Positions 28,279-47,210 of a stretch of DNA of 64,000 nucleotides are shown piece after piece (the stretch's first letter is position 1; each line of letters starts with the position of its first letter). The position numbers and the translations under genes are program-made. This DNA comes from Lachnospiraceae bacterium. GTDB lineage: Bacteria > Bacillota > Clostridia > Lachnospirales > Lachnospiraceae. The notes under the pieces were generated by a model. The model saw only the letters and a list, made by a program, of their open reading frames with translations, ran no database searches and had not been told where the DNA came from. The stretch spans positions 1,533 to 65,532 of the forward strand of contig JASGGU010000005.1 of the NCBI GenBank assembly GCA_047602645.1. The letters run 5' to 3'.

Positions 28279-28343
28279 AATTAATCTCCTTTTTTATGAG
28301 TGTTTTATAGAATACAGTCTTATTAGACTGGAATTCCAAAAGC

Positions 28344-33180: not shown

Positions 33181-33198
33181 AGTTAGACAAATCTAACC
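33181..33198 (-). promoter_or_regulatory. Conserved inverted repeat GGTTAGATTTGTCTAACT at the predicted +1 of the ABC/MFS/ECF-1 operon
   Basis: Read on the minus strand. It starts exactly 7 nt downstream of the TATACT -10 hexamer. The same GGTTAGAT-N4-CTAAC element recurs at 40380-40397 and 47159-47176. Confidence 0.6.
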
Positions 33199-33204
33199 GA
33201 GAGG

Positions 33205-33251
33205 AGTATAGCATTTGTTAAATTACGATTCAAGTCCTCGAGCACAGGACT
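33205..33251 (-). promoter_or_regulatory. Promoter of the ABC/MFS/ECF-1 operon with an abutting palindrome
   Basis: On the minus strand: TTGAAT (33233-33228), a 17-nt spacer, then TATACT (33210-33205). The palindrome AGTCCT-N7-AGGACT (33233-33251) abuts the -35 element. Confidence 0.55.
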
Positions 33252-33263
33252 CTATAGATACTA

Positions 33264-33292
33264 TTGACATTTATTATTTGCCTATTTATACT
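33264..33292 (+). promoter_or_regulatory. Sigma-A promoter of the AraC-family gene
   Basis: TTGACA (33264-33269), a 17-nt spacer, then TATACT (33287-33292). A ~90-nt leader follows, containing the tandem repeats AAGATTTTTGTATATT (33301-33316) and AAGATTTTTTATATT (33319-33333). Confidence 0.65.
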
Positions 33293-33387
33293 GATAATGT
33301 AAGATTTTTGTATATTATAAGATTTTTTATATTGTCCTAAACAGTACTATATATTCTAAAATAGAACCTGGAAAGAGGGATACGTAT

Positions 33388-34350
33388 ATGCAATGCTTTT
33401 ACAGTGTATCGGACATGCTGCGTCAATATGAAGAGTGCGGATGGAAGCGGACCAGTATCCGCTATGGGTGTTTATTTGAGCCGCCCGAAGAAGTTGCATC
33501 AGGGCATATTCAGGTATGGGGGAATCCGAAAACCTGCTGTTTTATTGATACAGATATTGTTTTTCATACAGATTTGACAGAGCGGTATTATTACGAGGCA
33601 AAGAGCATTCAAATCACCTTTATTGAGGATATGGCTTTGAGCTATTACCAGAAAAAAACCGAGCGCAACGAGGCACGGTTTGGAGTTTTCTGTTATGTGA
33701 ATAATCTGCCACGCCCATGGTATAAGCGATTTTCTTCCGGCGAAGCACAAAAAGCGTCTACAGTTTATATAACAGATCAGTTTCTTGAATGTACCGGTGC
33801 TGTATTCACGGATTTTCTTTGGAACCGTACAGCTCACGCAGTAAACAATAGGGAAGTATCACTTCCTTTATTGGCTGATATTTGCAGAGAAATCAAGTCC
33901 GCTGATATGAGCAGAGAAGCGTTCTCTTTGTTTTTTCAGGGGAAAGCTTTGGAAGCTGCCGGACTGTTAATAGATTACACACTTTCCTTTGATTTAGAAA
34001 GCTTACCAACGCCGACCTTAAAAGCGAAAAATGCGGCTAAGTCAGCATTACAAACCTTAAACCAATCCTTTGCCCAACCTCCGGTGATTGATGATCTGGC
34101 AAAATCAATCGGTATCAATAAGCAAACCCTTCAACGAGCTTTTCAACAGCTTACCGGCCAAACAATCCACGAATATATCAAAGCAATAAGAATGGAAAAA
34201 TCTATTTCTCTATTAACTGATACGCCAAAGAGAATTGATGAGATCGCCAAAGAAGTGGGATATCAAAGCAAGGGAAATTTTTTTAAGGCGTTTGCGGAAA
34301 CCTTTGGCTGTACCCCAAACGAAATGAGACGCGCTCAATTATCTAAATAG
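33388..34350 (+). CDS. AraC-family transcriptional regulator (YbtA/PchR-like position)
   Basis: The 320-aa ORF has a C-terminal double HTH (PPVIDDLAKSIGINKQTLQRAFQQLTGQTIHEYIKAIRMEKS...GYQSKGNFFKAFAETFGCTPNEMR). It is divergent from the ABC/MFS/ECF operon. Confidence 0.88.
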   Translation: MQCFYSVSDMLRQYEECGWKRTSIRYGCLFEPPEEVASGHIQVWGNPKTCCFIDTDIVFHTDLTERYYYEAKSIQITFIEDMALSYYQKKTERNEARFGVFCYVNNLPRPWYKRFSSGEAQKASTVYITDQFLECTGAVFTDFLWNRTAHAVNNREVSLPLLADICREIKSADMSREAFSLFFQGKALEAAGLLIDYTLSFDLESLPTPTLKAKNAAKSALQTLNQSFAQPPVIDDLAKSIGINKQTLQRAFQQLTGQTIHEYIKAIRMEKSISLLTDTPKRIDEIAKEVGYQSKGNFFKAFAETFGCTPNEMRRAQLSK

Positions 34351-34576
34351 TTAAAAAGGAATATCCCCAACGCTGCAAAAATAACCGTTATGCTGATGTC
34401 CAACGCTATCTTTTGCCACCGCCATCTTATTTCTTGTTGCCTACCTTGGGTGTTTCTACGCCTCTATTCTTGGTACTTGCCTAAGGACTAATCATCGGCA
34501 TTGCCTTTGGCGGAACGGCCACAACCTCCCCCCTTCTGATTCAGGACTCTGTAATTTCCGGTAAAAGAGGTGCGGC

Positions 34577-35007
34577 AGCTTTTTAGTAGCCTTGGCATAT
34601 ACGCCCATGCCCTGATCCAATAATTCCAGCATCTCTTTTGTGACGCCTTTTTGCGGACCGTAAACGTAGGTGGCACCATTAGCCCCGCATAAGGGATTCG
34701 TAGCCTAACGCTGTCAGCATCCCAGTTTTTGTATGTTCGATATAGCCATAGGCAGCTTCGATTCTGTTTCCCAATGGGCCCTTCACACAGAGGCGGACAG
34801 CCTCTCCCGAAAGTCCTTCAATCAGCGCCTCCGTTGTCCCTTCTCCGCCATCCGCAAGCGGCTTTATGATAATTTCTGCTTCCGCGGCATTCAATATGCC
34901 TTCTTTAATCGCTTCGCCGGCTTCCAGGGAAGTCAGGCTGCCCTTAAACGAATCAATCGCAATCACTACCTTCATTTCACTCGGGTTCCTCTCTGGCTGT
35001 TATCTCA
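34577..35007 (-). pseudogene. Decayed partial copy of the glycerate kinase gene plus its upstream leader
   Basis: Colinear nucleotide matches: 34577-34701 to about 12765-12889, 34702-34723 to 13021-13042, and 34724-35007 to 13217-13500. The implied deletions are about 131 bp (between two ATTCGT copies) and 174 bp, and the 3' part of the gene is missing. ORF-track fragments 34488..34679 and 34679..34975 are pieces of this copy. Confidence 0.9.
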
Positions 35008-35094
35008 TTTTCTCTATTGATCTTCAAATATTTTAACAGCCGTTTACACGCAACATCCATATGCGTGCGCTTCTCTAACTGCGGTTCTGCCTGA
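35008..35094 (-). pseudogene. ~87-bp fragment homologous to an internal part of the 1045-aa hydrolase gene
   Basis: It aligns by eye with 18265-18352 (...AACAGCCGTTTGCACGCAACATCAATATGCGTG...CTCTAACTGCAGTTCTGCCTGA), with roughly 10 mismatches. It is joined directly to the glxK-leader copy. Confidence 0.8.
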
Positions 35095-36196
35095 AAGTCT
35101 CCAAGACAATATCCTGAATCTCTTCAGCAATGCGCTTTGCCCTGTTCCGATCTAATTTGATGTTCTCTGCAACCGCAAGCAATTCTTTCATTCCCGGATT
35201 CCTGCCATTTCCATCAATTGTAGTTGCATGCTCCCCGCCAATAGAATTGCTGAAGGTCAGATCATAGGCCGGCGATAAAATCCACCTGCCTTCATCCTTA
35301 CAATACAGGAAAGAAAAGTTTTTTGCATGATCATCCCTGTTATGAGAAAAGACATTGAAGCACATAAGCCGAAACATCTGCTCGACCTGCCTGTAATCGT
35401 TTGTAAGCTGCAAAGTCAGCTGCATTAGAATATGATAATCCAGATTCGGAATCCGATGTGAGGTCTCAAGCAATGCGCTTACTGACAGCATGTGAATTTT
35501 CTGATCTCCATCCCTGTCGAATCGCTTTGTTGCAAAAAATCCCCCATATTTTTTTGAATCTAACAGCTTTGTTTCCGTCATAGGAATGCCGCATTTTCGT
35601 GCACATAAGGAATACTTATATTCCTGCACGCCAATATCATCTTTATCCTGAGAGGATGGGAATTTTATGATCCACTCCTGCCCATCAATCTTATTAAAAA
35701 CCTTCGGTCTTGCACCACCTGAAGACCCTCCCATTTGAAAAAGCACATCCAGATTGTCACTTTCTTTGCTTTCAAAAATATTCTGGCATTCCGCTGCAAG
35801 CTCATCCAGCGAAAGCCGCGACTGCCTAAGAGACAAACTACTTTCCGGTTGGTAGGTTAAGGCTCCCATTCCTGATGCTCCAACAATAGCCAGTCTATCA
35901 ATCGCATGAACCTCTGCCGGATTGATTCTTTTTTTAAGGAGGAGTCTGTCAACTAATAATCGTCCCCATCCGTCTGGCAGACTGTCTGAAAACACCCCAA
36001 ACAAGCCCTCAAAAGGATCATAGCTTTTCGGCAGAAACACTTTTTTTTGCAATGGCAAGGAAAATGGACTAATGGAAAACCCATTACGAATCCATTCATC
36101 CTCATACTCAAATGCAACCCGATGATCCGCAGCTGTCGCAAGGGTTCCTACCTTCTTTTCTCCGAACATGACGCTTAGCGATTTATTTTTGTTCAT
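35075..36196 (-). CDS. hipA: HipA-family serine/threonine kinase toxin (C-terminus replaced by scar sequence)
   Basis: The 373-aa ORF has an N-terminal HipA coupling domain (GTLATAADHRVAFEYEDEWIRNGFSISPFSLPL), a catalytic HNRDDHAKNFSF motif and SPAYDL. The last ~6 codons and the stop lie inside the hydrolase-gene fragment. Confidence 0.85.
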   Translation of the reverse strand: MNKNKSLSVMFGEKKVGTLATAADHRVAFEYEDEWIRNGFSISPFSLPLQKKVFLPKSYDPFEGLFGVFSDSLPDGWGRLLVDRLLLKKRINPAEVHAIDRLAIVGASGMGALTYQPESSLSLRQSRLSLDELAAECQNIFESKESDNLDVLFQMGGSSGGARPKVFNKIDGQEWIIKFPSSQDKDDIGVQEYKYSLCARKCGIPMTETKLLDSKKYGGFFATKRFDRDGDQKIHMLSVSALLETSHRIPNLDYHILMQLTLQLTNDYRQVEQMFRLMCFNVFSHNRDDHAKNFSFLYCKDEGRWILSPAYDLTFSNSIGGEHATTIDGNGRNPGMKELLAVAENIKLDRNRAKRIAEEIQDIVLETFRQNRS

Positions 36197-36464
36197 CGAT
36201 TACCTCCTGAATGGATGAATAGCCCTTCTTAGAAAACAGTTCATCAAAATCGTTTTCATATCCCAGAGCAAATGCAATTTTAATAAGCGAGGATAATGAT
36301 ATCTCCCCTGTCCGTTCGAACCTCTTAATGGAGCCCAAACTCACATCGGAAGAATCTGCAAGCCGTATCTGCGTTATCTTTTTCTCCTTTCTCCTCTCAC
36401 TCATTCGTTTTGCAATTTCCGCATTCATATCCGCAGGAGATTTCAAAAATCCAAAACTATTCAT
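36183..36464 (-). CDS. XRE-type HTH protein, HipB-like antitoxin candidate
   Basis: The HTH reads KKITQIRLADSSDVSLGSIKRFERTGEISLSSLIKIAFAL. The gene overlaps hipA by 14 nt. The start is uncertain: 36464, 36428 or the TTG at 36500, and none has a clear RBS. Confidence 0.75.
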   Translation of the reverse strand: MNSFGFLKSPADMNAEIAKRMSERRKEKKITQIRLADSSDVSLGSIKRFERTGEISLSSLIKIAFALGYENDFDELFSKKGYSSIQEVIDEQK

Positions 36465-36544
36465 GATTATTATTTTAACTGTTTTTCTAATTAAAGTCAA
36501 GTTTTGGTTAATATATTAACTATTTCGATTTATCTATTGCACTA

Positions 36545-36733
36545 TTATTTATCTTGCTCCCGCACAATTTCATATTGCAACATTTCATAATGCAGCTTGC
36601 TGCCCTCTGCAATCTCTTCCGGCAGAAGCGCTCTGGCAACAAGCTTCAGCCCTTCCTCTTCCCGATCGGTTCTGCGCAGGTGCGCATAATCACCGTCAAT
36701 CATCTCAACAACATATTCCTTTGGTCCCATCAT
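36545..36733 (-). CDS. DUF3006-like small protein
   Basis: The 62-aa ORF reads ...VVEMIDGDYAHLRRTD...LLPEEIAEGSKL..., matching the DUF3006 pattern as I remember it. It lies immediately downstream of the DUF4317-like gene. Confidence 0.6.
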   Translation of the reverse strand: MMGPKEYVVEMIDGDYAHLRRTDREEEGLKLVARALLPEEIAEGSKLHYEMLQYEIVREQDK

Positions 36734-36755
36734 TTTTTAATCCTTTCTTCGTCCG

Positions 36756-37379
36756 CTATGCCAACAGGATGTCCTTAATACTTCTTTGATCTGATTCCTC
36801 CGCCTGATAGACATCCATCCTGTGGCAGTCACTGCTCCTATCCTTAAACGCAGGGAACAGGAAACCGCATTCCGGAGTTCCCGCCTCATAATCCCCGCTC
36901 ACAGGGCAGACAGCACCGATCAGAAAGGAATATACTTCCTCTGATTCCCACTGGCTTTCTCCATCACTGCCCTTCAGCGGAACATCATAATTCCCATAAA
37001 AAATATAGACTGCATATGATTTTGACGCCTTATATTTTTCTCCGAAGGTTTCATAAAACACATCCAGCAGCGCATCATTCTTCAATTCACAATCCTTAAG
37101 AGCCATAAGAAGTGTCCACATGCTCCCCGGCTTTTCATCCTCCGGACGAAAGACCTCCTCTTTCAACTGCACGTTCGTCTCCGAAAAAGGGATCGCCTTG
37201 GCAATATCAAGATTACTCTGCCGGTCTTTTCCCGATAACTTCTGAAAATGCTGATTAAAGGTTCCGTCCACATACCCCTCTTCATCAAAATAAGCGCCGG
37301 CAATCCGGCTGAAGCAATTTCTCTTTAAAGTCATGCGCCGCGTCAGCTCCAGCATGTCCTCTCGATTGATCTTCCCCAT
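36756..37379 (-). CDS. DUF4317-like protein
   Basis: The 207-aa ORF contains YDVPLKGSDGES...SEEVYSFLIGAVCPV and GFLFPAFKDRSSD, which resemble the DUF4317 family. It has an AAGGAG RBS. Confidence 0.6.
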   Translation of the reverse strand: MGKINREDMLELTRRMTLKRNCFSRIAGAYFDEEGYVDGTFNQHFQKLSGKDRQSNLDIAKAIPFSETNVQLKEEVFRPEDEKPGSMWTLLMALKDCELKNDALLDVFYETFGEKYKASKSYAVYIFYGNYDVPLKGSDGESQWESEEVYSFLIGAVCPVSGDYEAGTPECGFLFPAFKDRSSDCHRMDVYQAEESDQRSIKDILLA

Positions 37380-37478
37380 TGATTGATACTCCTTTAAAAT
37401 AGCCCTGCTTTTGCAGGATTCATACTGATTAAATAAGAATTATATCTTATAATGCAGATGAAATCAACTTTATTGCAC

Positions 37479-38897
37479 CTAGCTTGGTTTTGCTTTGTCC
37501 TTATCTAATTGCAGAATTTGTGAGCAGGTACGGTCAATAAACTCAAAATCATGGGACACGACAAAAACAATCATTCCTGCTTCGGATAGGGTTTTTATCA
37601 AAGCACTGACACGGAGCATTGAGTCATAATCCAATCCGCTGGTCGGTTCGTCAAAACAGATAATCGGACTGCCTTTCACAATTGCGGAGCCGATGGTCAC
37701 ACGCTGCTTTTGGCCGCCGGAAAGGGACGCCGGGTGACGCTCCCGATACTCGGACAATCCAAGGGCATGTAAGGTTTCCTTTACCCTTTGGGCACAATTA
37801 TTTCCGGCTCCCAGCGATAATTCTTCCTCTACGCTGCTTGTGAACAGTTGATAATCCGCATCCTGCATAACCAGATAGGATAGCTTCCGCCGGGTGCGGG
37901 CAGAGAGCTTGTTGCCGTTATATCGAATAGAACCGCCGGTTTCCTTTAGAATCCCCGTCAGGACAGACAATAGCGTTGTTTTTCCGGCACCGTTATGCCC
38001 TAAAATACCGACAACATCTCCGGCATTTGCCTTAAAGCTGAGGTTGCCGACAATGTCAGGCTCTTTTTTATAAGAGAAAGAAAGGTTGCTTATCTCCAAA
38101 AGGGATTCTTTCTGACAGTTGCCATGTGGTTCATGACAGAACCTTCCCGTCTCCTGTTCGGGGTAGGATGTACGCAAACCATATTCGGTACGTTTTCTTT
38201 CATTCAGAGAGCAAAATTCCGCTCGGGTAAAAGACCTTACTATCTGCCCATTTTCAATTAAGTATGCCTGGTCAATCAAATCCCGTAAATAAAAGAATCG
38301 ATGTTCCACAACAAGAATTGTACAGCCTGACTTCTTCAGTTTTTTCATAATTTCCGATAACCGCTTCGTTGCATCATAGTCAAGATTTGCAGATGGTTCG
38401 TCAAAAATGTAAACCTTTGGAGACAGCGCATGAACAGAACCAATTGCGATCTGTTGCTTTTCCCCGCTGGACAAAGCAAAGATACTGCGGTTCAAATAGG
38501 GCAAAAGTTCAAGCTCTGCAGCAGCCTTTGCAACGCGCCGTATGGTTTCCTCCCTATCAAATCCCATATTTTCGCAGCCAAATGCCAGCTCTCTTGTGGT
38601 ATCTGTCATAAAAAATTGAGAGCGGGGATCTTGAAAAACCGTGCCGATTTCTCCTGCCAGCTCTGCCGGCCTCATTTCCAGCAGGGATTTTCCGTCTATC
38701 TGTATATCTCCATTAGAATTTCCGGGATAGAAATGGGGAATTAATCCGTTTAATGCCCGCATTAAGGTTGTCTTTCCGCATCCGCTCCGCCCTGTCAGCA
38801 AGACAAATTCTCCGCTTTTAATGGTTAAATTAATGTTCCTTAGGGTGCATTCTGCACTTTCCTCATACTGAAAAGAATAGTTTTGAAATTCGATCAT
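37479..38897 (-). CDS. ECF transporter fused double ATPase (module 2)
   Basis: There are two ABC cassettes (GRSGCGKTT ... LSSGEKQQ ; GHNGAGKTT ... LSGGQKQR). The ATG at 38897 (MIEFQNYSF) has a GGAGGG RBS. Confidence 0.9.
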   Translation of the reverse strand: MIEFQNYSFQYEESAECTLRNINLTIKSGEFVLLTGRSGCGKTTLMRALNGLIPHFYPGNSNGDIQIDGKSLLEMRPAELAGEIGTVFQDPRSQFFMTDTTRELAFGCENMGFDREETIRRVAKAAAELELLPYLNRSIFALSSGEKQQIAIGSVHALSPKVYIFDEPSANLDYDATKRLSEIMKKLKKSGCTILVVEHRFFYLRDLIDQAYLIENGQIVRSFTRAEFCSLNERKRTEYGLRTSYPEQETGRFCHEPHGNCQKESLLEISNLSFSYKKEPDIVGNLSFKANAGDVVGILGHNGAGKTTLLSVLTGILKETGGSIRYNGNKLSARTRRKLSYLVMQDADYQLFTSSVEEELSLGAGNNCAQRVKETLHALGLSEYRERHPASLSGGQKQRVTIGSAIVKGSPIICFDEPTSGLDYDSMLRVSALIKTLSEAGMIVFVVSHDFEFIDRTCSQILQLDKDKAKPS

Positions 38898-38899
38898 GC

Positions 38900-39670
38900 T
38901 TACACCCTCCATAGAATTATTTTCCCAATGGAGGTATGATCAAACAAAAGCAGCACAGACAGGAATAGAATAACTCCCGCTGCCACAACATACTCTTTCA
39001 TGGCAAAAACAACCGGATGGATCGCATGCCGCTTTACATCCCGCTCCAACCCTCTTGTAGTGCCGGAGGCCGCCAATTCATCCGTCACTTTCAGGCAGCG
39101 CATCAAAAGCGGAATTAATAGGTACTCCATTGTCATCAAAGGATGAAAAACCCTTTTCCATACCGTATCCCCAATCCCGCGAATGCCCATGGCGTTTCGT
39201 ATCATTCGATATTCAATCCGCAATGTCGGAAGATAACGGAACATGACGACCAAGGGAATTGTGACCGACTGCGGCAGCTTCATACGCTGCAAGGACACCA
39301 TAAGCTCATCCATTCCCGTAGTTTTTAATACCCATCGCCCCATCATAATAATCGGAATCATCTTTCTTACCGTAACGCCGAAAACACTCATCATCACACT
39401 CAAGCCCGGAACGGACACATAGCGGAAAAGAACGTTCAGGTAGGCTACCGCAATATACACAATCAGCATTTTCACCGCCCACTTTAGTTCACTTCCCGCA
39501 CTGATGAATGCCGCAAACGCAACCATTAAGGATATTCCTGCAACATCACCCATGAGGAAATAGCTGACAAATCCGATTAAAATAAGTAAAAGCAGTTTGC
39601 ATCGAGGATCTAATAATGCAGTTCCCGAATATTGTTTTTTCATAATTATTTGTAATATTGTATGTTCCAT
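38900..39670 (-). CDS. ECF T component (module 2)
   Basis: A 256-aa protein starting at MEHTILQ (GGAGG RBS 6 nt upstream). It has the CbiQ-like region ...RIEYRMIRNAMGIRG.... The longer ORF-track start overlaps the S gene. Confidence 0.82.
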   Translation of the reverse strand: MEHTILQIIMKKQYSGTALLDPRCKLLLLILIGFVSYFLMGDVAGISLMVAFAAFISAGSELKWAVKMLIVYIAVAYLNVLFRYVSVPGLSVMMSVFGVTVRKMIPIIMMGRWVLKTTGMDELMVSLQRMKLPQSVTIPLVVMFRYLPTLRIEYRMIRNAMGIRGIGDTVWKRVFHPLMTMEYLLIPLLMRCLKVTDELAASGTTRGLERDVKRHAIHPVVFAMKEYVVAAGVILFLSVLLLFDHTSIGKIILWRV

Positions 39671-39738
39671 AGCAAGCCTCCGAAATGCAAAAGGAGCCGC
39701 CAAGCAGCAGCCCCTAAGCCTTTTTATGCCGACCACAA

Positions 39739-40341
39739 CTATTTCACAGTTACTAAACCTGCTTTTATAAAATGCTTTTTTAACATGTTCTGTCCCAGCC
39801 ATCCGCCAAGTAATCCTCCGATAAGACCGGCTGCGACTATAACGATCAGCATCGGGGCAGAAGTAAAGCCGGTTATCGTGTCTATGTATTCCTGCGGGAT
39901 GCTGTTACGTTCCATCGCGGCAACAAAAGCCGCCTGCAGAAATTTGATAGGTCCAATCGCACCAAAGGTAAATATGCCGCTAAAAACAGAATAGGCAGCC
40001 ATCATCGACCTCGTTGTAACCTCTTTTCCACCTAGAATCAGGATGTCGCAGAGAATGCCACCTGCTACCAACGAAATCGGAATAAACCAAAATGCTCCAA
40101 CAACCAAGAACAGTACCGCCTGTATGATTCCGCAAATAGTTAAAACACCTTTTTTCGGCACTTTTGCAAGCAGCAGCATCATAACAATACCATTTGGAAT
40201 TGCTACAACCGGTGGATAAAACACGTTCGTTATCGGCCCTGCCACACTCATTGCGGTGCTGATAATCATACAAATCACCCACATAAGAGCAGTAAGAATA
40301 CCTACCAGAATAAAATCTTTTGCATTGAGTTTCTTATTCAT
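39739..40341 (-). CDS. Putative ECF S component, MptD/Trep_Strep type (module 2)
   Basis: The 200-aa polytopic membrane protein has the C-terminal tail LKKHFIKAGLV and an AAGGAG RBS. Confidence 0.7.
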   Translation of the reverse strand: MNKKLNAKDFILVGILTALMWVICMIISTAMSVAGPITNVFYPPVVAIPNGIVMMLLLAKVPKKGVLTICGIIQAVLFLVVGAFWFIPISLVAGGILCDILILGGKEVTTRSMMAAYSVFSGIFTFGAIGPIKFLQAAFVAAMERNSIPQEYIDTITGFTSAPMLIVIVAAGLIGGLLGGWLGQNMLKKHFIKAGLVTVK

Positions 40342-40379
40342 CTTTTCACTTCTCCTTCAATTGTTAAAAAATGCGCCGA

Positions 40380-40397
40380 AGTTAGTTCAATCTAACC
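40380..40397 (-). promoter_or_regulatory. Conserved inverted repeat GGTTAGATTGAACTAACT upstream of ECF module 2
   Basis: Read on the minus strand. It begins 10 nt downstream of a TATAAT hexamer (40412-40407). I see no convincing -35 element. Confidence 0.55.
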
Positions 40398-40463
40398 TCA
40401 ACGCAAATTATACAGCGCACTCTATTGAGATAACACCCAAAAGCGATTCGGTTTTGCCCGAAA

Positions 40464-41435
40464 TCAGTTTACTTTACCTTCTCTTTTATACTTTTTGGGA
40501 ATTACACCATATTTGTTCCGAAATGCAGAAGCGAAGTTGCTTGACTTTGTATATCCCACAGACAAGGCAATATGATTGATCGGCAGGTCTGTTGCAACAA
40601 GCAATTCAGCAGCCTTTTCCAATCTCTGATCAATAATATAACTATGAATCGGCATCCCAAACAACGCCGAAAACCCTTTTGAAAGCTTTGATACGCTCAT
40701 ATGTGCTTTTTTTGCCAACTGCTCACAGGTTGGGGCATAGGCAAGCTGTCCGTCAATCATCCGTTTGATTTCCCACAGGCTATCCCTGTCCGTTTTTGAA
40801 ACAGAGATCTTGTCAGAACTCAAAATACCCAGCTCCAGAACCTCACTTAGATAAATGGAAACGAGTTCCAGAAGCTTACTATCCAGATAAAGATGCGAAA
40901 GCCCTCCGCGATAAAGAGAAAAATCTTTAAGCTCCGCTAATATCCGCTCCATATTCGCAGTGATTTTTACTTTAGAAACAGTTTTTAACAGCTTATTCTC
41001 ATAAGCAATTATTTCCTGTTCCTCAAAATAGTCTTCTAAAATAGAAGAAAAATAGCGCATCGGTATTTTTATATTTTTGAAATGAAAATCACAGTGCTTT
41101 GCATAGCAGGCATACTCCGTGCCGCCATGGCCTTTGTAAATACAGGATTCACCCTTTTGTATTTGGACGTCTTCACGGTGGTTCGTGATTCCCCATGACA
41201 TGCCTTCATTCATGCAAAAAATAATTTGAATATATTCCTCACGATTGACGCCCCATACATTCATATCTTCTTTATATAGAACTTTCCAATCGGATAATAT
41301 CACGCCTCGCTTTGTAACTGCCTGTGAAATGCTTCCGTTTCCTAAATCAGAGGGGATATCTAATGATATTGTTTGAGGCGAATTTGCAACGAGGTCATGG
41401 TACAAATTATTTAAATATTGGTTTGGATTTCCCAT
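40464..41435 (-). CDS. AraC-family transcriptional regulator (second copy)
   Basis: A 323-aa protein from the ATG at 41435 (GGAGGTG RBS 4 nt upstream). It has a C-terminal double HTH (CEQLAKKAHMSVSKLSKGFSALFGMPIHSYIIDQRLEKAAELL...GYTKSSNFASAFRNKYGVIPKKY). Confidence 0.88.
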   Translation of the reverse strand: MGNPNQYLNNLYHDLVANSPQTISLDIPSDLGNGSISQAVTKRGVILSDWKVLYKEDMNVWGVNREEYIQIIFCMNEGMSWGITNHREDVQIQKGESCIYKGHGGTEYACYAKHCDFHFKNIKIPMRYFSSILEDYFEEQEIIAYENKLLKTVSKVKITANMERILAELKDFSLYRGGLSHLYLDSKLLELVSIYLSEVLELGILSSDKISVSKTDRDSLWEIKRMIDGQLAYAPTCEQLAKKAHMSVSKLSKGFSALFGMPIHSYIIDQRLEKAAELLVATDLPINHIALSVGYTKSSNFASAFRNKYGVIPKKYKREGKVN

Positions 41436-41458
41436 TGCCCACCTCCAATTTATCAAAC

Positions 41459-41878
41459 CTATCTCAGTTCTTTCCTAAGCCTGCTCACAATACGTTCCAC
41501 CTGATCAATCGCTTCAGCCACCTGTTCCTTTGCATCTCCGATTTTGGACTGCACGAACATATCCGCAATGAAACCATCAAAAAAGAAATCCGCAAACGTC
41601 AGAAAATCTCCGATCTGTATGTTCGGCAAATATTCATTTACATCATCCAGTTCCCGCTGGAAGCTCCTCAAATCCTGCCTGGCAGCCTCCATACACTCTG
41701 ATGCGTTATTCAGCTTTGAGTGCTTGATCAAATCTGTAATCAGGCCCCCGCCAAGGATATCCACAATTCCCCAGTTTCCGGCACTTTTCAAATAATCCTG
41801 TGCCTCCCGCAGGCTATTTAACGCTCTTTCACCCGCACTGATTGCCTCTCGTATTTCCTTATTTACATCGTATGACAT
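41459..41878 (-). CDS. Hypothetical helical protein (139 aa)
   Basis: The ORF is clean with an AAGGTGGA RBS. The predicted helices flank NWGIVDILGGGLITDLIKHSK and FADFFFDGFIADMFV. I cannot name a family. It ends 23 nt before the AraC start. Confidence 0.6.
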   Translation of the reverse strand: MSYDVNKEIREAISAGERALNSLREAQDYLKSAGNWGIVDILGGGLITDLIKHSKLNNASECMEAARQDLRSFQRELDDVNEYLPNIQIGDFLTFADFFFDGFIADMFVQSKIGDAKEQVAEAIDQVERIVSRLRKELR

Positions 41879-41910
41879 ATCATTTCCACCTTATTTTCGT
41901 AGTTATGGGA

Positions 41911-41934
41911 TCAAAACTTATTTGCAAAAATAAG
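41911..41934 (-). terminator. Weak AT-rich hairpin after the GyrI-like gene
   Basis: Stem CTTATTT (41917-41923) / AAATAAG (41928-41934) with loop GCAA. TTTTGA follows on the minus strand. Confidence 0.3.
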
Positions 41935-42009
41935 CATTCATCTCTGTTTTAGTATGTGTATAATATATCATCAAAAATTCACCGAAACAAGTATCGGGCT
42001 TAAAAATTG

Positions 42010-42669: not shown

Positions 42670-42699
42670 ACTTCTATCCCTCCGTAAATGAATTGCCGT

Positions 42700-43239
42700 C
42701 TATCCAAGCAATTTCTTTTTATGAGCTTTCAGTTTTTTGATCGCCCAGTCATAATGGCTTGAGGTAGTACTTACGAAATAAGATCCCAATGTCGTACCCT
42801 TCGTCCATACAAATACCCCTTTTGAGAAAAGCTCTTCATTTGAGTACTCTTCCATCAATTTCATGAGTTCGCGGTGCGAGGCATCCAATTTATCCGAGGC
42901 ATCCTGCAAGGATGTATTCTGATGCTTATTCCAAAACATTACATTCATATCACCATAGGTTTTCCATGAATATTCTTCCGGAAGGAATGGCTGATTCCTG
43001 CCTCTCCTGTTTGACGCTATCCAATTGATGAGAAGCTGATGCCACTCATATAGATGGATCAGTACATCTCTCAGATTCTTATCCCGTTTCCAGTGGGCTT
43101 CTTTCTTCTTCTCATCAGAAGAAAAATCAAACTCCCTGGACAGTTCCTTCTCTGACATTCCTTCTATCAGCGTCCTAAGCTTTTCATAATTTTCTGTTGC
43201 CGCCGCTATTAAATCCGCCTTCGTCTGTGGTCGTGGCAT
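42700..43239 (-). CDS. ClbS/DfsB-family (DUF1706) four-helix-bundle protein
   Basis: The 179-aa ORF reads MPRPQTKADLIAAATENYEKL...RDVLIHLYEWHQLLINW...SHYDWAIKKL, typical of ClbS/DfsB. A GAGGAGG RBS is present. Confidence 0.82.
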   Translation of the reverse strand: MPRPQTKADLIAAATENYEKLRTLIEGMSEKELSREFDFSSDEKKKEAHWKRDKNLRDVLIHLYEWHQLLINWIASNRRGRNQPFLPEEYSWKTYGDMNVMFWNKHQNTSLQDASDKLDASHRELMKLMEEYSNEELFSKGVFVWTKGTTLGSYFVSTTSSHYDWAIKKLKAHKKKLLG

Positions 43240-44156
43240 CTCACTTCATCCTCCTCATATTTTTTCACCAAATCCTTTGCGATATTCAGAAGTTCATATC
43301 TGACAGACACAGGTTCCAGTATCTCGGCTTGACTGCCAAAGGTCATGAGCCAGCTGATCAGGTTCTCCTTATCCGTAAAATCCACAGCAAACAAAAGCTT
43401 CCCATCAGCCTGCTCCTCAAAGCAATGCGGTCCGAATTCTTCTACCAGCCGCCATTTTACATCCTGGGAAAACAAAGCCTTCACCTGCATATTCTGAGGA
43501 AATACCTGATCGGTGGATAACTCAGGAGGCGGGACATCTCTTTTATCAAAAATTTCACCGATCGCCCTCAGCTGATCCATCCGGTTCAATTTGAACAAAC
43601 GAAACGCTTCTTTTTCCAGACAAAATCCCCACACATACCAGCTCGACCATTTAAATACCAGATAGTACGGCTCCACCTTGCGCTCACTTTCACTGTTCGG
43701 GGAGTAATACCAAAAAGATATCAAATGTCTGTCCTCAATTGCAGTCTGAATTACCTCAATTTTCGGTGACAGAGAATCCTTGTACCAAGAGGAAAGATCA
43801 ATCAGGATCGAATCTCTGCCACTGACAAATTCTGAGGAGCCGGACTGCAGCCGTTCCATCAGCTGACTATAATACCTGCTGCCGCAAACGCTGTCCAGGC
43901 TGCGCAGCCCCGCAAGAATCACCTGCATGTCCTTTGAAGTAAGCAGTGTCCTGTCAATCTTATAGTCGTCCATGATGCCGATACCGCCGCCCGCACCCTG
44001 AACGGTACGGATGGGAATTCCGGCCTTGCACAAAGCCTCAATATCCCTATTTATTGTCCGTCTGGAAACCTCAAATTTCTCTGCCAATTCAGGAGCTGTT
44101 ATTTGCTCCTGCTGCAATAATACCGAAAGTATTCCGATCAGTCTGTCTATCTTCAT
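43209..44156 (-). CDS. YafY-type HTH-WYL domain transcriptional regulator
   Basis: From the ATG at 44156 (GGAG RBS): MKIDRLIGILSVLLQQEQITAPELAEKFEVSRRTINRDIEALCKAGIPI.... A WYL-like central region (FWYYSPNSESERKVEPYYLVFKWSSWYVWGF) follows. The 3' end overlaps the ClbS-like gene by 31 nt. Confidence 0.85.
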   Translation of the reverse strand: MKIDRLIGILSVLLQQEQITAPELAEKFEVSRRTINRDIEALCKAGIPIRTVQGAGGGIGIMDDYKIDRTLLTSKDMQVILAGLRSLDSVCGSRYYSQLMERLQSGSSEFVSGRDSILIDLSSWYKDSLSPKIEVIQTAIEDRHLISFWYYSPNSESERKVEPYYLVFKWSSWYVWGFCLEKEAFRLFKLNRMDQLRAIGEIFDKRDVPPPELSTDQVFPQNMQVKALFSQDVKWRLVEEFGPHCFEEQADGKLLFAVDFTDKENLISWLMTFGSQAEILEPVSVRYELLNIAKDLVKKYEEDEVRCHDHRRRRI

Positions 44157-44268
44157 AAGAACTCCATACCTATACTCTATCAGAGGAAACATGTCATCTG
44201 TGTGTCATGTTTATTTTAACACAGTATATTTTATTATGAAATACTCAGAACAATTTTCTATATAATAA

Positions 44269-44306
44269 GAACTGCCCGACAGATGCAATGATCTATCGGA
44301 CAGTTC
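44269..44306 (-). terminator. Terminator hairpin after ECF module 3
   Basis: An imperfect 16-bp inverted repeat, GAACTGCCCGACAGAT / ATCTATCGGACAGTTC, with a 6-nt loop. It starts 6 nt past the ATPase stop. TTATTATATAG follows on the minus strand. Confidence 0.6.
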
Positions 44307-44311
44307 CCTCA

Positions 44312-45763
44312 TCAAACAAAAAACTGCTTCAGCTTCCCAACCCCTTCTTGATCCAGCTGATAGGTATCTCGAACTTCTCCCTTGTCAATTTGTATCACAT
44401 GGGTACAGGATTTCATAATCAGTTCCAAATCATGCGTTACTACAAAGGCTGTCTTTTTCCCAAGAAAGGATAAAAGCATATTTGCTGTTTCTTCCATGTG
44501 GTCGTAATCAAGTCCGCTGGTTGGTTCATCAAAAATCAAAATCTCTTTATCTGCCAATACAGCCGCCGCAATGGCCACTCTTTGTTTCTGCCCACCCGAC
44601 AAGCTCATGGGATGCCTTTCTTTGTATTTTAACAAATCAAATTGCTGCAATACTGTTTCGGCCTTCTCTTCTTCTATATTCTTTAATTTCAATGTGACAT
44701 CACCTATTACTGTTTCACTAAATAGCTGATGATTTACATCCTGCATCACCATATAGCTGCTATCCGTTATTTTCTTCTTTTTCTCTCCATTAATTGTCAC
44801 AATTCCTTTAAAGTGTTTATTTAATCCGCAAAGACATTTTGAGAACGTGCTTTTACCTGCACCATTATGCCCAATGACAGCAATAATAGCATTCTCTGGG
44901 ATTTCCAGTTTTTCAATGTTCAGCGCATATTCCTTTTCATCCTTGTAATGATATCGAAAATTCTTCAATTCTATCTTTCGATCAGTATCTAATTGTGTAG
45001 CAGAAACGGAATAATCAATAGACTCTATATCCATTATTCTCAATCCCATTGTTCTCAGTTGTGCATTGCTGTATTGTTTAAATTGCTTCATAGAAATATC
45101 AAAGTCAATTTTTCCATCATTCAGATGTATGACACGGTCGCAGATATCTTTCAACCAGTAAAGTCTATGTTCTGCAATGATCACTGTCTTTCCTTGATTC
45201 TTCCATCTTTTCATAATCCTGGCCAAATCACGAATTGCATCTACATCCAGATTAGAGGTGGGTTCATCCAATACAATAATTTCCGGGCTGGTAGCGCAAG
45301 CCGATGCACAGGCAATCTTCTGCTTTTCTCCGCCCGAAAGCAGAAAAATACTTCTTCCCATCAAATCTTCTATTTGAAACTGTTCTACCGTATCAAAATA
45401 TCGTGCCAGCGTCTCCTCTCTGTCCAGTCCGTCATTTTCACATCCAAATACAATTTCACCTGAGGTATCCACACAGAAAAACTGACTTCTGGGATTTTGA
45501 AACACACTGCCGACTTTCTTTGATACTTTATTGAGCTCTGTTTTTCTTACATTCATTCCGGCAACCGTAATGGTTCCGCCAATACTTCCTTCGTAATAAT
45601 GAGGAATCAGTCCATTAATCAGCCGGGTTATGGTTGTTTTTCCGCATCCGGATTTTCCGCAAAGCAATACAATTTCACCCTGCTTTATGTGAAGGTTAAT
45701 ATCATCCAAGGTTCCCCCATCCAGATTCTTGTATTTAAAATTTAAATTTTGTATCGTAATCAT
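44312..45763 (-). CDS. ECF transporter fused double ATPase (module 3)
   Basis: The 483-aa ORF has two ABC cassettes (GKSGCGKTT ... LSGGEKQK ; GHNGAGKST ... LSGGQKQR). Confidence 0.9.
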   Translation of the reverse strand: MITIQNLNFKYKNLDGGTLDDINLHIKQGEIVLLCGKSGCGKTTITRLINGLIPHYYEGSIGGTITVAGMNVRKTELNKVSKKVGSVFQNPRSQFFCVDTSGEIVFGCENDGLDREETLARYFDTVEQFQIEDLMGRSIFLLSGGEKQKIACASACATSPEIIVLDEPTSNLDVDAIRDLARIMKRWKNQGKTVIIAEHRLYWLKDICDRVIHLNDGKIDFDISMKQFKQYSNAQLRTMGLRIMDIESIDYSVSATQLDTDRKIELKNFRYHYKDEKEYALNIEKLEIPENAIIAVIGHNGAGKSTFSKCLCGLNKHFKGIVTINGEKKKKITDSSYMVMQDVNHQLFSETVIGDVTLKLKNIEEEKAETVLQQFDLLKYKERHPMSLSGGQKQRVAIAAAVLADKEILIFDEPTSGLDYDHMEETANMLLSFLGKKTAFVVTHDLELIMKSCTHVIQIDKGEVRDTYQLDQEGVGKLKQFFV

Positions 45764-45776
45764 ATTGCCGCTCTCC

Positions 45777-46517
45777 TTAGATTATTTTTATATAGAATAA
45801 TATAGACAATACAATTATCAAGGTATAGAGTGCCATCATCATATAATCAATCGCCTCAAATTTAACCTGATTCACGCATACCCTGTCTATATCTCCGCCT
45901 AAACCTCTTGTCATGGCCGATTGGGATAATTCATCACCGATCTTAACCACACAAATAATCAAAGGAACAATCCTGTATTCAATAAACTTTCCAATATGTC
46001 TGATATCAAAAACAATACCTCTCATTTTCATGGCATCGCTAATGCTTTGAAATTCACAAGCAATTGTCGGAAACATGCGAAACATGACACAGAACGGAAC
46101 AACAATTTTATCTGACACACGCCATTTTTTCAAGCCTGCCGAGAATTCACTTACTGTTGTTGTCGAGATTATATAAGCTCCTGCAATTACCATCGGCATA
46201 AACTTGACAAATATAATTGTCATTGCAACCAGAAATAACTGCAATCCCCCCTTTACTCCCGGAAAAACATATTCTGTCAGCACAACCGCGATCAGATATA
46301 ACCCTCCATAAACAACCACCAATCGGCCTTTACCGGCAAGCATCATCAAGAAAAACATTGCAAAGCATACGATATGCTGAAAATAAGGAATTCCATTTCC
46401 AAGGCCGCCCAAGACAAACAAAGAGATCATGATAAGAAGCATAATCTTTGTTCGGATATCCAATACATAAGGCTTCCTTTCAAACGATTTTATTAGCTGT
46501 TCTTTTGAAACTTCCAT
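45777..46517 (-). CDS. ECF T component (module 3)
   Basis: The 246-aa polytopic protein has the CbiQ-like region ...ACEFQSISDAMKMRG.... It directly abuts the S gene. Confidence 0.82.
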   Translation of the reverse strand: MEVSKEQLIKSFERKPYVLDIRTKIMLLIMISLFVLGGLGNGIPYFQHIVCFAMFFLMMLAGKGRLVVVYGGLYLIAVVLTEYVFPGVKGGLQLFLVAMTIIFVKFMPMVIAGAYIISTTTVSEFSAGLKKWRVSDKIVVPFCVMFRMFPTIACEFQSISDAMKMRGIVFDIRHIGKFIEYRIVPLIICVVKIGDELSQSAMTRGLGGDIDRVCVNQVKFEAIDYMMMALYTLIIVLSILFYIKII

Positions 46518-47138
46518 TCAAACCAGACCCGCTTTTTCAAAGTGTTTTCTGCTGATTGCTTTTGCTATGTATGCACCAACAACCGCCGAGATGATAATTC
46601 CTATCGTCATAACCGGCAGCATCCAAGGCGGCAGAAAGCTGGATAATGCGTCTGCATATTCCTGCCCATATTCCTGTCTGGAAGCAAAATAGCCAATGGG
46701 GTCAATGAATATTGGGAGATAATTTCCGAGTAACCATAATGAAAACACTGCATAGCTGGTGACAATTGCTTTTACGCTCTTATAGTTTCCTGCTTTTAAT
46801 ATCAGGTCCGCCAAAACAGCAAAAATAATTGCAAAAATAAACGGAAAAATTCCCATTCCGCAAAGTCCGGTAATGCCGCCTGTAATGATTCCTGAAATAG
46901 ATAACATTCCAAACTTATTGATCTTGGTATAATAAAGTATCATTGGAATCGCTCCCAAAACCGGCGCAATAAATGCATAGCATACCATCAGTATTGGCAC
47001 CAGACCCATAAAAGCACAAACCATTACAATGATAAAATAAATAGCCGTATAGATACCAATATTGATTAAATCCTTTCCGCTCCATTTCTTTGTATCATAC
47101 TGTATTCCTTCGTTGTCGTATTTCGAGTTATTACTCAT
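46518..47138 (-). CDS. Putative ECF S component, MptD/Trep_Strep type (module 3)
   Basis: The 206-aa polytopic protein has the C-terminal tail SRKHFEKAGLV and a GAGGAGG RBS. Confidence 0.7.
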   Translation of the reverse strand: MSNNSKYDNEGIQYDTKKWSGKDLINIGIYTAIYFIIVMVCAFMGLVPILMVCYAFIAPVLGAIPMILYYTKINKFGMLSISGIITGGITGLCGMGIFPFIFAIIFAVLADLILKAGNYKSVKAIVTSYAVFSLWLLGNYLPIFIDPIGYFASRQEYGQEYADALSSFLPPWMLPVMTIGIIISAVVGAYIAKAISRKHFEKAGLV

Positions 47139-47158
47139 TTTTTCATCCTCCTCTTTTT

Positions 47159-47210
47159 GGTTAGTTTCATCTAACCGTTTTATTATATTACCCTTTTATT
47201 TAGAGGTAAA
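47159..47210 (-). promoter_or_regulatory. Promoter plus conserved inverted repeat GGTTAGATGAAACTAACC of ECF module 3
   Basis: On the minus strand: TTTACC (47210-47205), a 17-nt spacer, then TATAAT (47187-47182). The repeat (47176-47159) begins at about +1. The leader after the repeat (AAAAAGAGGAGG) nearly matches the leader at 33160-33180. Confidence 0.6.

Follow-up and report, generated by a model that had tools for sequence, protein, structure and literature searches.

A conserved GTTAG-N6-CTAAC palindrome as a putative operator of a short DtxR-family metalloregulator at three transporter operons of a Lachnospiraceae bacterium

Siderophore uptake offers examples of a metal repressor paired with an AraC-type activator, such as Fur with PchR, YbtA or Btr. 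Among repressors of the DtxR family, one IdeR dimer binds TTAGGNNNNCCTAA, a 14-bp site of the form TTAGG-N4-CCTAA (PMC8464063), the enterobacterial MntR box is AACATAGCnnnnGCTATGTT (PMC1698941), and the operator of Treponema TroR is an 18-bp dyad, TTTTGATATATCAAAA, situated at or just past the promoter of a metal-transport operon (PMC2628430). Clusters that unite a pair of exporter-fold ABC half-transporters with an MptD-type ECF module are represented by SP1433-1438 of Streptococcus pneumoniae (bioRxiv 10.1101/367086) and mptABCDEF of Mycobacterium avium subsp. paratuberculosis (PMC4298942); both are induced by metal limitation and reported as zinc-responsive (bioRxiv 10.1101/367086; PMC4298942). 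The pneumococcal cluster, which is induced by metal chelation, includes an AraC regulator and depends on it (bioRxiv 10.1101/367086). In M. avium subsp. paratuberculosis, virulence has been connected with this type of cluster, an MptD-type ECF module plus paired exporter-fold ABC proteins (mptD, PMC4132290). For neither the pneumococcal nor the mycobacterial cluster is a GTTAG-type operator known.

We analysed a window of 64 kb, the whole stretch of DNA under study, from a Lachnospiraceae bacterium. It contains three exact copies of an inverted repeat, GGTTAGAT-N4-CTAAC, each lying 5-9 nt 3' of a -10 box. On the minus strand, GGTTAGATNNNNCTAAC is matched exactly at 33182-33198, 40381-40397 and 47160-47176, and 100 dinucleotide-preserving shuffles yielded no match. 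Allowing two mismatches added only the opposite-strand reads of the same three sites, and TTAG-N6-CTAA is likewise confined to them in the 64 kb. The three copies are where an earlier note on this sequence had placed them. Its -10 hexamers (TATACT, TATAAT and TATAAT) are also correct, the palindrome starting 6, 9 and 5 nt beyond them at sites 1, 2 and 3 respectively, and the near-identical continuation that it reported for two leaders is seen as a tail, CTAAC..AAAAAGAGGAGG, common to sites 1 and 3.

Each copy precedes a transporter operon on the minus strand, and Pfam and NCBIfam matches agree with the gene content proposed previously, that is, ABC, ABC, MFS and ECF genes in operon 1 and ECF modules in operons 2 and 3. 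All promoter starts given here, for the window and for the feoA promoters discussed below, are predicted from sequence. Site 1 (GGTTAGATTTGTCTAACT, 33181-33198) is a predicted operator that would cover roughly +1 to +18 relative to the promoter of operon 1, which a promoter scan called as sigma-70-type (TTGAAT-17-TATACT with TG before the -10 box, 33205-33233, minus strand). By domain matches and the list of open reading frames, operon 1 (25497-33159) comprises six genes, encoding an ABC half-transporter (31342-33159), a second half-transporter (29570-31345), a Mef/EntS-like MFS protein (28344-29573), an MptD-family S component (27667-28278), a CbiQ-type T component (open reading frame 26933-27946, the real start probably being later) and a double ATPase (25497-27026). 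Divergent from it is AraC-family regulator 1 (33388-34350, plus strand, domain match), with a strong promoter (TTGACA-17-TATACT, 33264-33292) that does not overlap the palindrome. Site 2 (GGTTAGATTGAACTAACT, 40380-40397), also a predicted operator, follows by 9 nt a TATAAT box (40407-40412, minus strand) that lacks a good -35 element; the promoter scan called no full promoter at this site, and orthologues have TATAAT, TAATAT or TAGAAT at the same position. From domain matches, operon 2 (37479-40341) encodes an MptD-family S component (39739-40341), a T component (38900-39802) and a double ATPase (37479-38912), and directly upstream lies AraC-family regulator 2 (40464-41456, minus strand). Site 3 (GGTTAGATGAAACTAACC, 47159-47176), the third predicted operator, begins 5 nt after the TATAAT of a promoter predicted by the scan (TTTACC-17-TATAAT, 47182-47210, minus strand); operon 3 (44312-47138) has the same domain-based content, with the S component at 46518-47138, the T component at 45777-46517 and the double ATPase at 44312-45763.

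The palindrome recurs well beyond this window. Its core, GTTAG-N6-CTAAC, is found no more than 300 nt upstream of the gene for an MptD-type S component in 49 of 80 related loci, distributed over several phyla, with 56 exact cores observed against 0.27 in shuffles; some copies precede AraC genes. Site 2 occupies the same alignment column in the orthologous leaders L165-L167, and site 3 is kept in four further orthologues (L001-L004), there with a different spacer. Hence the element is present at orthologous loci in relatives, as the earlier note had asked to be checked, and its suggestion of a shared regulon is supported by the spread of motif-bearing loci. Among 81 unique sites neither half-site varies and the 6-nt spacer is free, its bases being complementary at no more than chance level, which gives the consensus R-GTTAG-H-N4-D-CTAAC-Y. 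The flanks have two-fold symmetry, since position 7 is rarely G and position 12 rarely C, position 1 is a purine and position 18 a pyrimidine.

A candidate for the protein that reads this symmetry emerged from two loci. In one (L007), a 122-aa DtxR-family gene adjoins the motif, divergent from the palindrome-bearing promoter, and in the other (L166, a 76% orthologue of operon 2) a DtxR-family gene stands at the end of the cluster, so that both tie the regulator gene to ECF clusters; there is no DtxR-family gene in the 64-kb window. We assembled an independent set of 80 metagenomic loci, for which similarity to the L007-type regulator was the sole criterion, and these contained 50 exact sites against 0.07 in shuffles, and 46 sites with one mismatch against 5.5. 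Most of the signal is local: 74 of the 96 sites lie no farther than 420 nt upstream from the regulator gene, concentrated in the gap between it and a divergent feoA-feoA-feoB operon, a clustering beside the gene of the regulator itself and beside genes for metal uptake. Some lie downstream of the -10 box of the regulator gene but ahead of its Shine-Dalgarno sequence. At 12 loci the feoA promoter reads TTGACA-[palindrome, 17 nt]-TATAAT, the motif filling the untranscribed -35/-10 spacer, and the same promoters carry a second copy 7-9 nt past the -10 box, positioned as in the window. The motif was present within 400 nt upstream in only 34 of 71 eligible regulator loci, so the family may include subgroups that use other operators. 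The regulator lacks an SH3-like domain, is about 120 aa long, and is widespread and strongly conserved among Clostridia, with thousands of relatives at 60-70% identity; a literature search found no published description of its motif or regulon.

Each palindrome is thus probably a DNA operator for one dimer of this SH3-less DtxR/IdeR/MntR-family metalloregulator, presumably encoded elsewhere in the genome. The resemblance to DtxR and IdeR sites that had been suspected from the half-sites is strengthened by the way in which the motif tracks the regulator gene. Like the IdeR/DtxR iron box, the palindrome is a symmetric TTAG/CTAA element in an N4 register, predicted to be read by a winged-helix dimer, that overlaps promoters of metal-uptake genes. 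The earlier description of the element as no canonical iron box holds in part. It does not match the 19-bp box TTAGGTTAGSCTAACCTAA, in which four CCTAA repeats serve two dimers: here the half-sites are 6 nt apart, the flanks break the repeat and position 7 is rarely G. The objection that was raised over the 6-nt spacing falls, however, because an IdeR dimer reads TTAGG-N4-CCTAA and the element reads G-TTAGh-N4-dCTAA-C; TAG-N6-CTA is common to the palindrome, the one-dimer IdeR site and the MntR box, and half-sites in this one-dimer register are present at all three window sites. Differences from the IdeR/DtxR system include the fifth repeat base, which is rarely G/C whereas the outer G/C is conserved, the missing SH3-like domain and part of the ancillary site, an Arg in the recognition helix where IdeR has Gln43, and the several separate one-dimer sites per promoter at feoA-type loci. 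The MntR box shares the layout xxTAGC-N4-GCTAxx, neither regulator has an SH3 domain, the closest solved relative by sequence is Escherichia coli MntR (2h09) and the best NCBIfam match is MntR, albeit under that family's cut-off. Nevertheless, the half-site is GTTAG and not CATAG, and the regulator neighbours feoAB and not mntH. The TroR operator is comparable in being an 18-bp dyad for a DtxR-family repressor at or just past a transport promoter, but its sequence is unrelated; Treponema loci in the set that we examined have the GTTAG-type motif upstream of ECF genes.

Residues M9, C100, E103 and H104 of the regulator are invariant and align with M10, C102, E105 and H106 of DtxR, so that the primary ligands are the Met, Cys, Glu and His of the IdeR/DtxR type; E. 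coli MntR instead carries Asp and Glu at the first and second of these positions. Met plus Cys is an Fe(II)-type signature (PMC11672702), and with the divergent feo operon as neighbour the metal sensed is most likely Fe(II). Within the recognition helix, the segment KPSVSRA shows almost no variation, consistent with invariant half-sites. On the other hand, the homologous pneumococcal cluster answers zinc limitation through its AraC regulator (bioRxiv 10.1101/367086) and the mptABC genes of M. avium subsp. paratuberculosis lie within a zinc-responsive genomic island (PMC4298942), so the metal could be other than iron.

The same zinc responses would fit a different symmetric dimeric regulator, of Crp/Fnr, MarR, TetR or Fur/Zur type, with the DtxR linkage arising indirectly from a shared metal regulon, and TetR-family genes flank some of the clusters. 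The DtxR family is not alone in using a 5-N6-5 layout, which Crp/Fnr-type proteins share, for example in the CRP site TGTGA-N6-TCACA. We consider such a regulator highly unlikely, given that arrays of the motif occupy the promoter region of the DtxR-type regulator itself at dozens of independent loci, which is the usual signature of autoregulation, that no second regulator family recurs in those loci, and that the half-site fits the known TTAG/CTAA recognition of the DtxR family (PMC8464063, PMC1698941).

Under the DtxR-type operator reading, a metal-loaded dimer would, when metal (most likely Fe(II)) is plentiful, bind both GTTAG half-sites, which are spaced 11 bp from centre to centre. The window sites span roughly -2 to +20 of each promoter and, like those of the feoA promoters, overlap the core promoter or predicted start, so that a dimer in place there would prevent open-complex formation or promoter clearance and keep the three transporter operons off; when metal is scarce, the repressor would leave and the operons would be expressed. 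Among the mechanisms considered in the earlier note, an operator at the start site is the best-supported, in particular by the feoA promoters with copies both in the -35/-10 spacer and 7-9 nt past the -10 box. We infer from these comparisons that the regulator is present in this genome, binds the sites, represses the operons and senses the metal proposed. The three operons would then be placed under metal control, probably by iron, and the cluster type with an MptD-type ECF module and paired exporter-fold ABC proteins would join a metal, probably iron, regulon. The short regulator would gain a putative motif, with an operator consensus from which its regulon can be predicted by sequence in anaerobes of the gut and rumen. 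Mechanisms of this kind are well known, and the outcome is a solid annotation rather than a surprise. A simple promoter-occlusion model does not account for about 23 sites in the related loci that sit 13-17 nt behind a hairpin, distant from a -10 box.

The neighbouring AraC-type regulators would probably contribute a second, activating layer through sites of their own. At site 2 a direct repeat, TTTCGGGC-N13-TTTTGGGT, with a 21-nt period and invariant alignment columns, reaches the -35 region (40435-40463, minus strand), and the palindrome-bearing promoters of L165, L166 and L167 have TTTTGGGT-N13-TTTTGGGT just upstream, with two copies in L167; this TTTTGGGT-type repeat is a candidate binding site for the cluster's AraC-type activator. 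The predicted two-layer circuit, now testable, combines a global metal repressor acting at the core promoter with an AraC activator, encoded locally, near -35, as in the pairing of Fur with PchR, YbtA or Btr, with a DtxR-family protein in place of Fur as the presumed repressor. Could the palindrome itself be the AraC operator? One AraC DNA-binding domain, with two helix-turn-helix units, would cover the 18 bp, and AraC-type half-sites extend over about 17 bp and contain two boxes at a spacing of roughly 11 bp. AraC-family genes occur at 30 of 80 loci (in 3-kb flanks only) and at all five longer loci, the palindrome precedes AraC genes too, and in S. pneumoniae SP1433 is needed for induction of the cluster (bioRxiv 10.1101/367086). 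This is nevertheless very improbable. The AraC proteins differ widely, being about 30% identical and only within the DNA-binding domain, a poor fit to an unvarying motif. The feoAB-regulator loci hold many copies of the motif but an AraC domain in only 1 of 80, so that co-occurrence and co-variation with a conserved AraC domain are not borne out. Moreover, AraC domains read asymmetric sites and the palindrome is two-fold symmetric, and the separate conserved TTTTGGGT repeat, with its period of 21-22 nt, lies where an AraC activator would bind.

A palindrome at a transcription start may also function as RNA, in the form of a stem-loop at the 5' terminus or in the leader (GGUUAG/CUAACC, 6-nt loop) that acts on mRNA stability or translation or is the target of an RNA-binding protein. 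The isolated hairpins fold at -3.8 to -5.5 kcal/mol, beating all 200 shuffles, and a start about 7 nt past the -10 box would put them at the extreme 5' end of the mRNA. Many motifs in related loci are 2-10 nt from a Shine-Dalgarno sequence, sense-strand variants that keep a G-U pair outnumber A-C variants by 32 to 11, a hint of extra constraint at the RNA level, and at site 2 and its orthologues the palindrome tips a longer hairpin with covarying outer pairs. Yet the five core pairs never covary, their sequence being invariant across phyla while the loop is free, and pairing cannot explain the symmetric bias at positions 7 and 12. The motif occupies untranscribed spacer in the 12 feoA promoters, and it overlaps a -35 or -10 box in L011, L014, L022, L033, L037 and L050, as read by eye. 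A search of Rfam at the gathering threshold, covering the window and the leaders of 20 loci, gave no match. A structured cis-regulatory RNA is disfavoured both by the absence of compensatory change in the core, only the outer stem of the site-2 type covarying, and by these positions outside transcripts. Since the core does not covary and the motif occurs outside transcripts, action as RNA is not supported as its primary function; the 5' stem-loop for mRNA stability that had been proposed is not upheld in that capacity, a mainly RNA-based element is scarcely likely, and any hairpin role would be secondary at most.

A tentative and rather doubtful extension is dual use, in which the DtxR-type operator on DNA becomes a functional hairpin once transcribed. 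The palindrome would be a 5'-terminal mRNA stem at sites 1 and 3; in site-2-type leaders a palindrome-tipped terminator would stop read-through from the AraC gene, with the operon promoter firing inside its 5' arm; and the 23 or so other sites would keep their fixed distance behind a separate hairpin. If true, this would amount to a compact terminator-promoter-operator module, possibly with repressor-coupled termination or RNA-polymerase release. At site 2 a terminator scan detected an extended 14-bp hairpin with the palindrome at its tip, followed by a U-run, behind AraC gene 2 (40372-40405, minus strand), with a folding energy of -20.6 kcal/mol and a z-score of -5.0. The G+C-rich hairpin, U-run and covariation, the last based on four sequences, are those of an intrinsic terminator, and termination is predicted; in the four orthologues the outer eight pairs vary, three of them changed on both sides, and the inner five core pairs never do.

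The palindrome GGTTAGATNNNNCTAAC has three exact matches in the window, at 33182-33198, 40381-40397 and 47160-47176; each lies on the minus strand where the earlier note had placed it, and 100 dinucleotide-preserving shuffles of the window gave none. Allowing two mismatches returned only the same three sites, read on the opposite strand, and the shorter TTAG-N6-CTAA is likewise confined to these places. The distance from the -10 hexamer to the palindrome is 6 nt at site 1, 9 nt at site 2 and 5 nt at site 3. Full promoters were called on the minus strand for site 1 (TTGAAT-17-TATACT, 33233..33205) and site 3 (TTTACC-17-TATAAT, 47210..47182); the promoter scan gave no good -35 element at site 2, where a TATAAT hexamer (40412-40407, minus strand) was read from the sequence. 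The gene content previously assigned downstream also proved correct: operon 1 combines an ECF module with two exporter-fold ABC half-transporters and a Mef/EntS-like MFS protein, and operons 2 and 3 each consist of an ECF module alone. The S components of all three operons belong to the MptD family (PF09605/TIGR02185), and operons 1 and 2 are adjoined by AraC-family genes. Exact-protein database look-ups found no record of the S component of operon 2, nor of the first ABC protein of the window.

An S-component alignment was used to scan one genome per species, which yielded 80 loci from Lachnospiraceae, Oscillospiraceae, Ruminococcus, Erysipelotrichaceae, Christensenellaceae, Treponema, other spirochaetes and a Flexilinea (Chloroflexi). 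The motif is indeed present at orthologous loci in relatives, a point the earlier note had marked for checking: 49 of the 80 loci have GTTAG-N6-CTAAC, with at most one mismatch, no more than 300 nt 5' of the S gene, and exact cores total 56 over the 473 kb, where shuffles gave 0.27. Close orthologues of operon 3 (loci L001-L004, S proteins 81-99% identical) keep the half-sites and differ in the spacers, and in the orthologues of operon 2 (L165-L167, 74-90%) the motif occupies the identical alignment column. Other genes preceded by the palindrome include AraC genes, ABC pairs, DUF2325 proteins, methyltransferases and a hydrolase. The small DUF2325 genes (L012:2080, L011:3287, L007:2859) sometimes separate the operator from the S gene, and at L029:688 the palindrome stands before the gene of a membrane protein that has a FeoB-associated-like N-terminus as well as a heavy-metal-associated domain; both kinds of gene are possible further regulon members.

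The consensus from 81 unique sites is R-GTTAG-H-N4-D-CTAAC-Y. Because the TTA and TAA cores are without variation, pairing across the spacer is at chance level and the preferences in the two flanks mirror one another, the pattern, judged from these alignments, is what a protein of two-fold symmetry contacting two half-sites would give, and not what a stem maintained by compensatory change would.

As to which protein that might be, AraC genes accompany many clusters, and their products share only about 30% identity, confined to the DNA-binding domain, so that they cannot account for an invariant site. This diversity, together with the occurrence of an AraC domain in only one of 80 loci chosen by the regulator described below, led to their rejection as binders of the palindrome; PDB sequence searches with both AraC proteins of the window matched DNA-binding domains only. 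To our knowledge, no Fur/Zur, AdcR, CRP/FNR or LysR motif, and no sigma-54 or ECF-sigma promoter motif, fits both the half-site and the spacing. The TroR operator was excluded, its sequence being different. IdeR reads one CCTAA repeat per monomer, with a single dimer on TTAGGNNNNCCTAA (PMC8464063), and the enterobacterial MntR box is AACATAGCnnnnGCTATGTT (PMC1698941); set in the IdeR/MntR register, the window element becomes G-TTAGh-NNNN-dCTAA-C. The likeness to DtxR/IdeR half-sites that had been noticed at first reading is thus upheld, in that the one-dimer register fits and the motif is linked with a DtxR-family regulator gene. That gene was found in locus L007, where it encodes 122 aa (Fe_dep_repr_C) and is transcribed divergently from an AraC promoter that bears the palindrome.

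Relatives of the L007 regulator are very numerous and 60-70% identical. Thirty-one of them were aligned and metagenome contigs scanned, giving 80 loci selected by the protein alone. Their 450 kb contain 50 exact palindromes against 0.07 in shuffles, and 46 with one mismatch against 5.5; 74 of the 96 lie at most 420 nt 5' of the regulator gene, usually in sets of two to four copies, and at least one upstream palindrome is present in 34 of 71 eligible loci. Some copies fall after the -10 box of the regulator gene itself and ahead of its Shine-Dalgarno sequence (L143 at 3970 is one), a position that indicates autoregulation. The divergent neighbour of the regulator gene is feoA-feoA-feoB. In 12 loci the feoA promoter consists of perfect TTGACA and TATAAT hexamers with the 17-nt palindrome as their spacer, a second palindrome follows 7-9 nt past the -10 box, as arranged in the window, and a third lies close to the Shine-Dalgarno sequence. 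Clostridial feoA promoters in this set of loci (L085-L164; for example L143:3833-3987) thus have copies in the -35/-10 spacer, at about +1 and near the Shine-Dalgarno sequence, and with a further copy at the divergent regulator gene they form a dense multi-operator control region. In L166, a conjugative element bearing a 76% orthologue of operon 2, a DtxR-family gene ends the AraC-ECF-ABC cluster. Relaxase, topoisomerase and other conjugative-element genes lie beside this cluster (L166:1-8619), neighbours that fit horizontal spread of an AraC-ECF-ABC-DtxR cassette.

Occurrence of the motif in the untranscribed spacer of consensus promoters at regulator loci is the strongest evidence for a DNA site. 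In six further loci (L022, L050, L037, L033, L011 and L014) one copy was read, by eye from printed sequence, as overlapping the -35 or -10 box. Rfam scans, covering the window and 20 loci, gave no relevant hit and no matching family. A riboswitch or protein-bound dual hairpin was considered as the main function, since a second hairpin precedes the palindrome at many sites, and was rejected, the conserved bases being the symmetric half-sites and the loop being free. The earlier note had offered an operator or an RNA stem; the symmetric half-sites and untranscribed-spacer copies favour the operator, and the stem finds no support as the main function. When the leaders were examined for compensatory changes, as had been proposed, the core pairs had none, and three of the outer pairs in the four leaders of the site 2 type change on both sides. 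The palindrome may also have a secondary RNA role: transcribed palindromes fold (-3.8 to -5.5 kcal/mol), and on the sense strand of the 81 unique sites variants preserving G-U number 32 against 11 for A-C, an excess that may reflect either an RNA pairing constraint or a transcription-linked C-to-T bias.

The explanation that best fits the three palindromes is that they serve as operators for a small metal repressor of the DtxR family; the three transporter operons would then join a metal-uptake regulon. That the proposed repressor senses iron is probable, if well short of certain. Its invariant M9, C100, E103 and H104 align with M10, C102, E105 and H106 of DtxR, whereas the residues of E. coli MntR at the places of M9 and C100 are Asp and Glu, and a recent review credits the Met/Cys pair with selectivity for Fe(II) over Mn(II) (PMC11672702); the link to feoAB was also counted for iron. 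Counted against it were the homologous pneumococcal cluster SP1433-1438, whose induction by TPEN is largely lost with added zinc or cobalt and requires its own AraC regulator (bioRxiv 10.1101/367086), and the mycobacterial mptABC genes, which lie within a zinc-responsive genomic island (PMC4298942). AraC-type activators are likely to provide a second input to the operons. Elements of this kind are well known; the family member at hand, the consensus it has and the link to MptD-type ECF/ABC transporters appear undescribed in the literature searched, where Trep_Strep/PF09605 gave nothing useful on the palindrome, GGTTAG/CTAACC as an operator gave only DtxR/IdeR papers and unrelated matches, and DtxR with feoAB or gut Clostridia gave no paper on the palindrome.

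An alignment of four operon-2-type leaders revealed a conserved direct repeat adjoining the -35 region, TTTCGGGC-N13-TTTTGGGT in the window (40463-40435, minus strand) and TTTTGGGT-N13-TTTTGGGT in the orthologues (L165:5980, L166:9883, L167:5062 and 9876, by the -35 of palindrome-bearing promoters). The order is repeat, conserved -10 box, 9 nt, palindrome. The position of the repeat suits binding by an AraC-type activator, and the promoter lacks a good -35 element. No TTTTGGGT-type repeat occurs upstream of sites 1 and 3, and we infer a candidate AraC box specific to operon-2-type clusters. The 9 nt before palindrome 2 pair with the 9 nt after it, forming a 14-bp hairpin with the palindrome at its tip and a U-run next (40372-40405, minus strand; also in L165-L167; -20.6 kcal/mol, z-score -5 at site 2). 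Among these four sequences only, the outer pairs change, three on both sides, and the five core pairs are constant. The hairpin is likely, as a working hypothesis, to be a terminator of the upstream AraC transcript, with the operon 2 start within its 5' arm; only AraC read-through would therefore terminate. In orthologues the palindrome also stands ahead of the AraC gene (L165:4937, L166:8854, L167:8870); none is found in front of AraC gene 2 of the window (41400-41560, minus strand, compared with L165:4860-5020). A 139-aa ORF lacking a Pfam match (41459-41878) abuts the listed TTG start of that gene, whose true start, the L165 alignment suggests, is the ATG before GNPNQYLNN.

About 23 other sites have a G+C-rich hairpin that varies in sequence, is often terminator-like, often with a T-run behind it, and ends 13-17 nt 5' of the palindrome (L007, L012, L018, L029, L039, L044, L051, L054, L062, L063, L071, L073, L078, L081 and L083). 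Since these hairpins are usually preceded, at a distance of 2-25 nt, by a good -10 box, the operator there would be at about +36 to +55. One S-component gene has four palindromes and three hairpins in its leader, with a period of about 55 nt (L062:2822-3004). Simple promoter occlusion does not account for the fixed hairpin-palindrome spacing; a stabilising 5' stem-loop, an insulating terminator set directly against the operator, or the release of polymerase that the bound repressor has stalled are possible readings.

In the intergenic region common to operon 1 and the divergent AraC gene 1, an inverted repeat, GAGTCCT-N7-AGGACTT (33240-33260, minus strand), abuts the operon 1 -35 box and could be a site for that AraC regulator. 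The operon 1 T-component ORF (26933-27946) and the S gene (27667-28278) share 280 nt, and the Pfam match of this ORF begins at residue 108; the real start of the T gene is probably much further downstream than listed. With the Mef(B) macrolide-efflux model (cut-off 800) the MFS protein of operon 1 (28344-29573) reaches 523 bits, and its match to the enterobactin exporter EntS is weaker; the ABC and MFS proteins of this operon could therefore transport in either direction. Between operons 1 and 2, the region 34679-37379 looks decayed or inserted, with a glycerate kinase fragment of 98 aa from the N-terminal end (34679-34975), a hipA gene (35075-36196) that has a small Xre-type HTH gene before it in the hipB position (36183-36500), and a DUF4317 protein (36756-37379) whose match covers no more than positions 1-159 of the 370 in the profile. 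Two paralogous IlvD/Edd-family dehydratase genes (23486-25231 and 53094-54824), adjoining sugar-utilisation genes (rhamnosidase, PfkB kinase), flank the transporter region.
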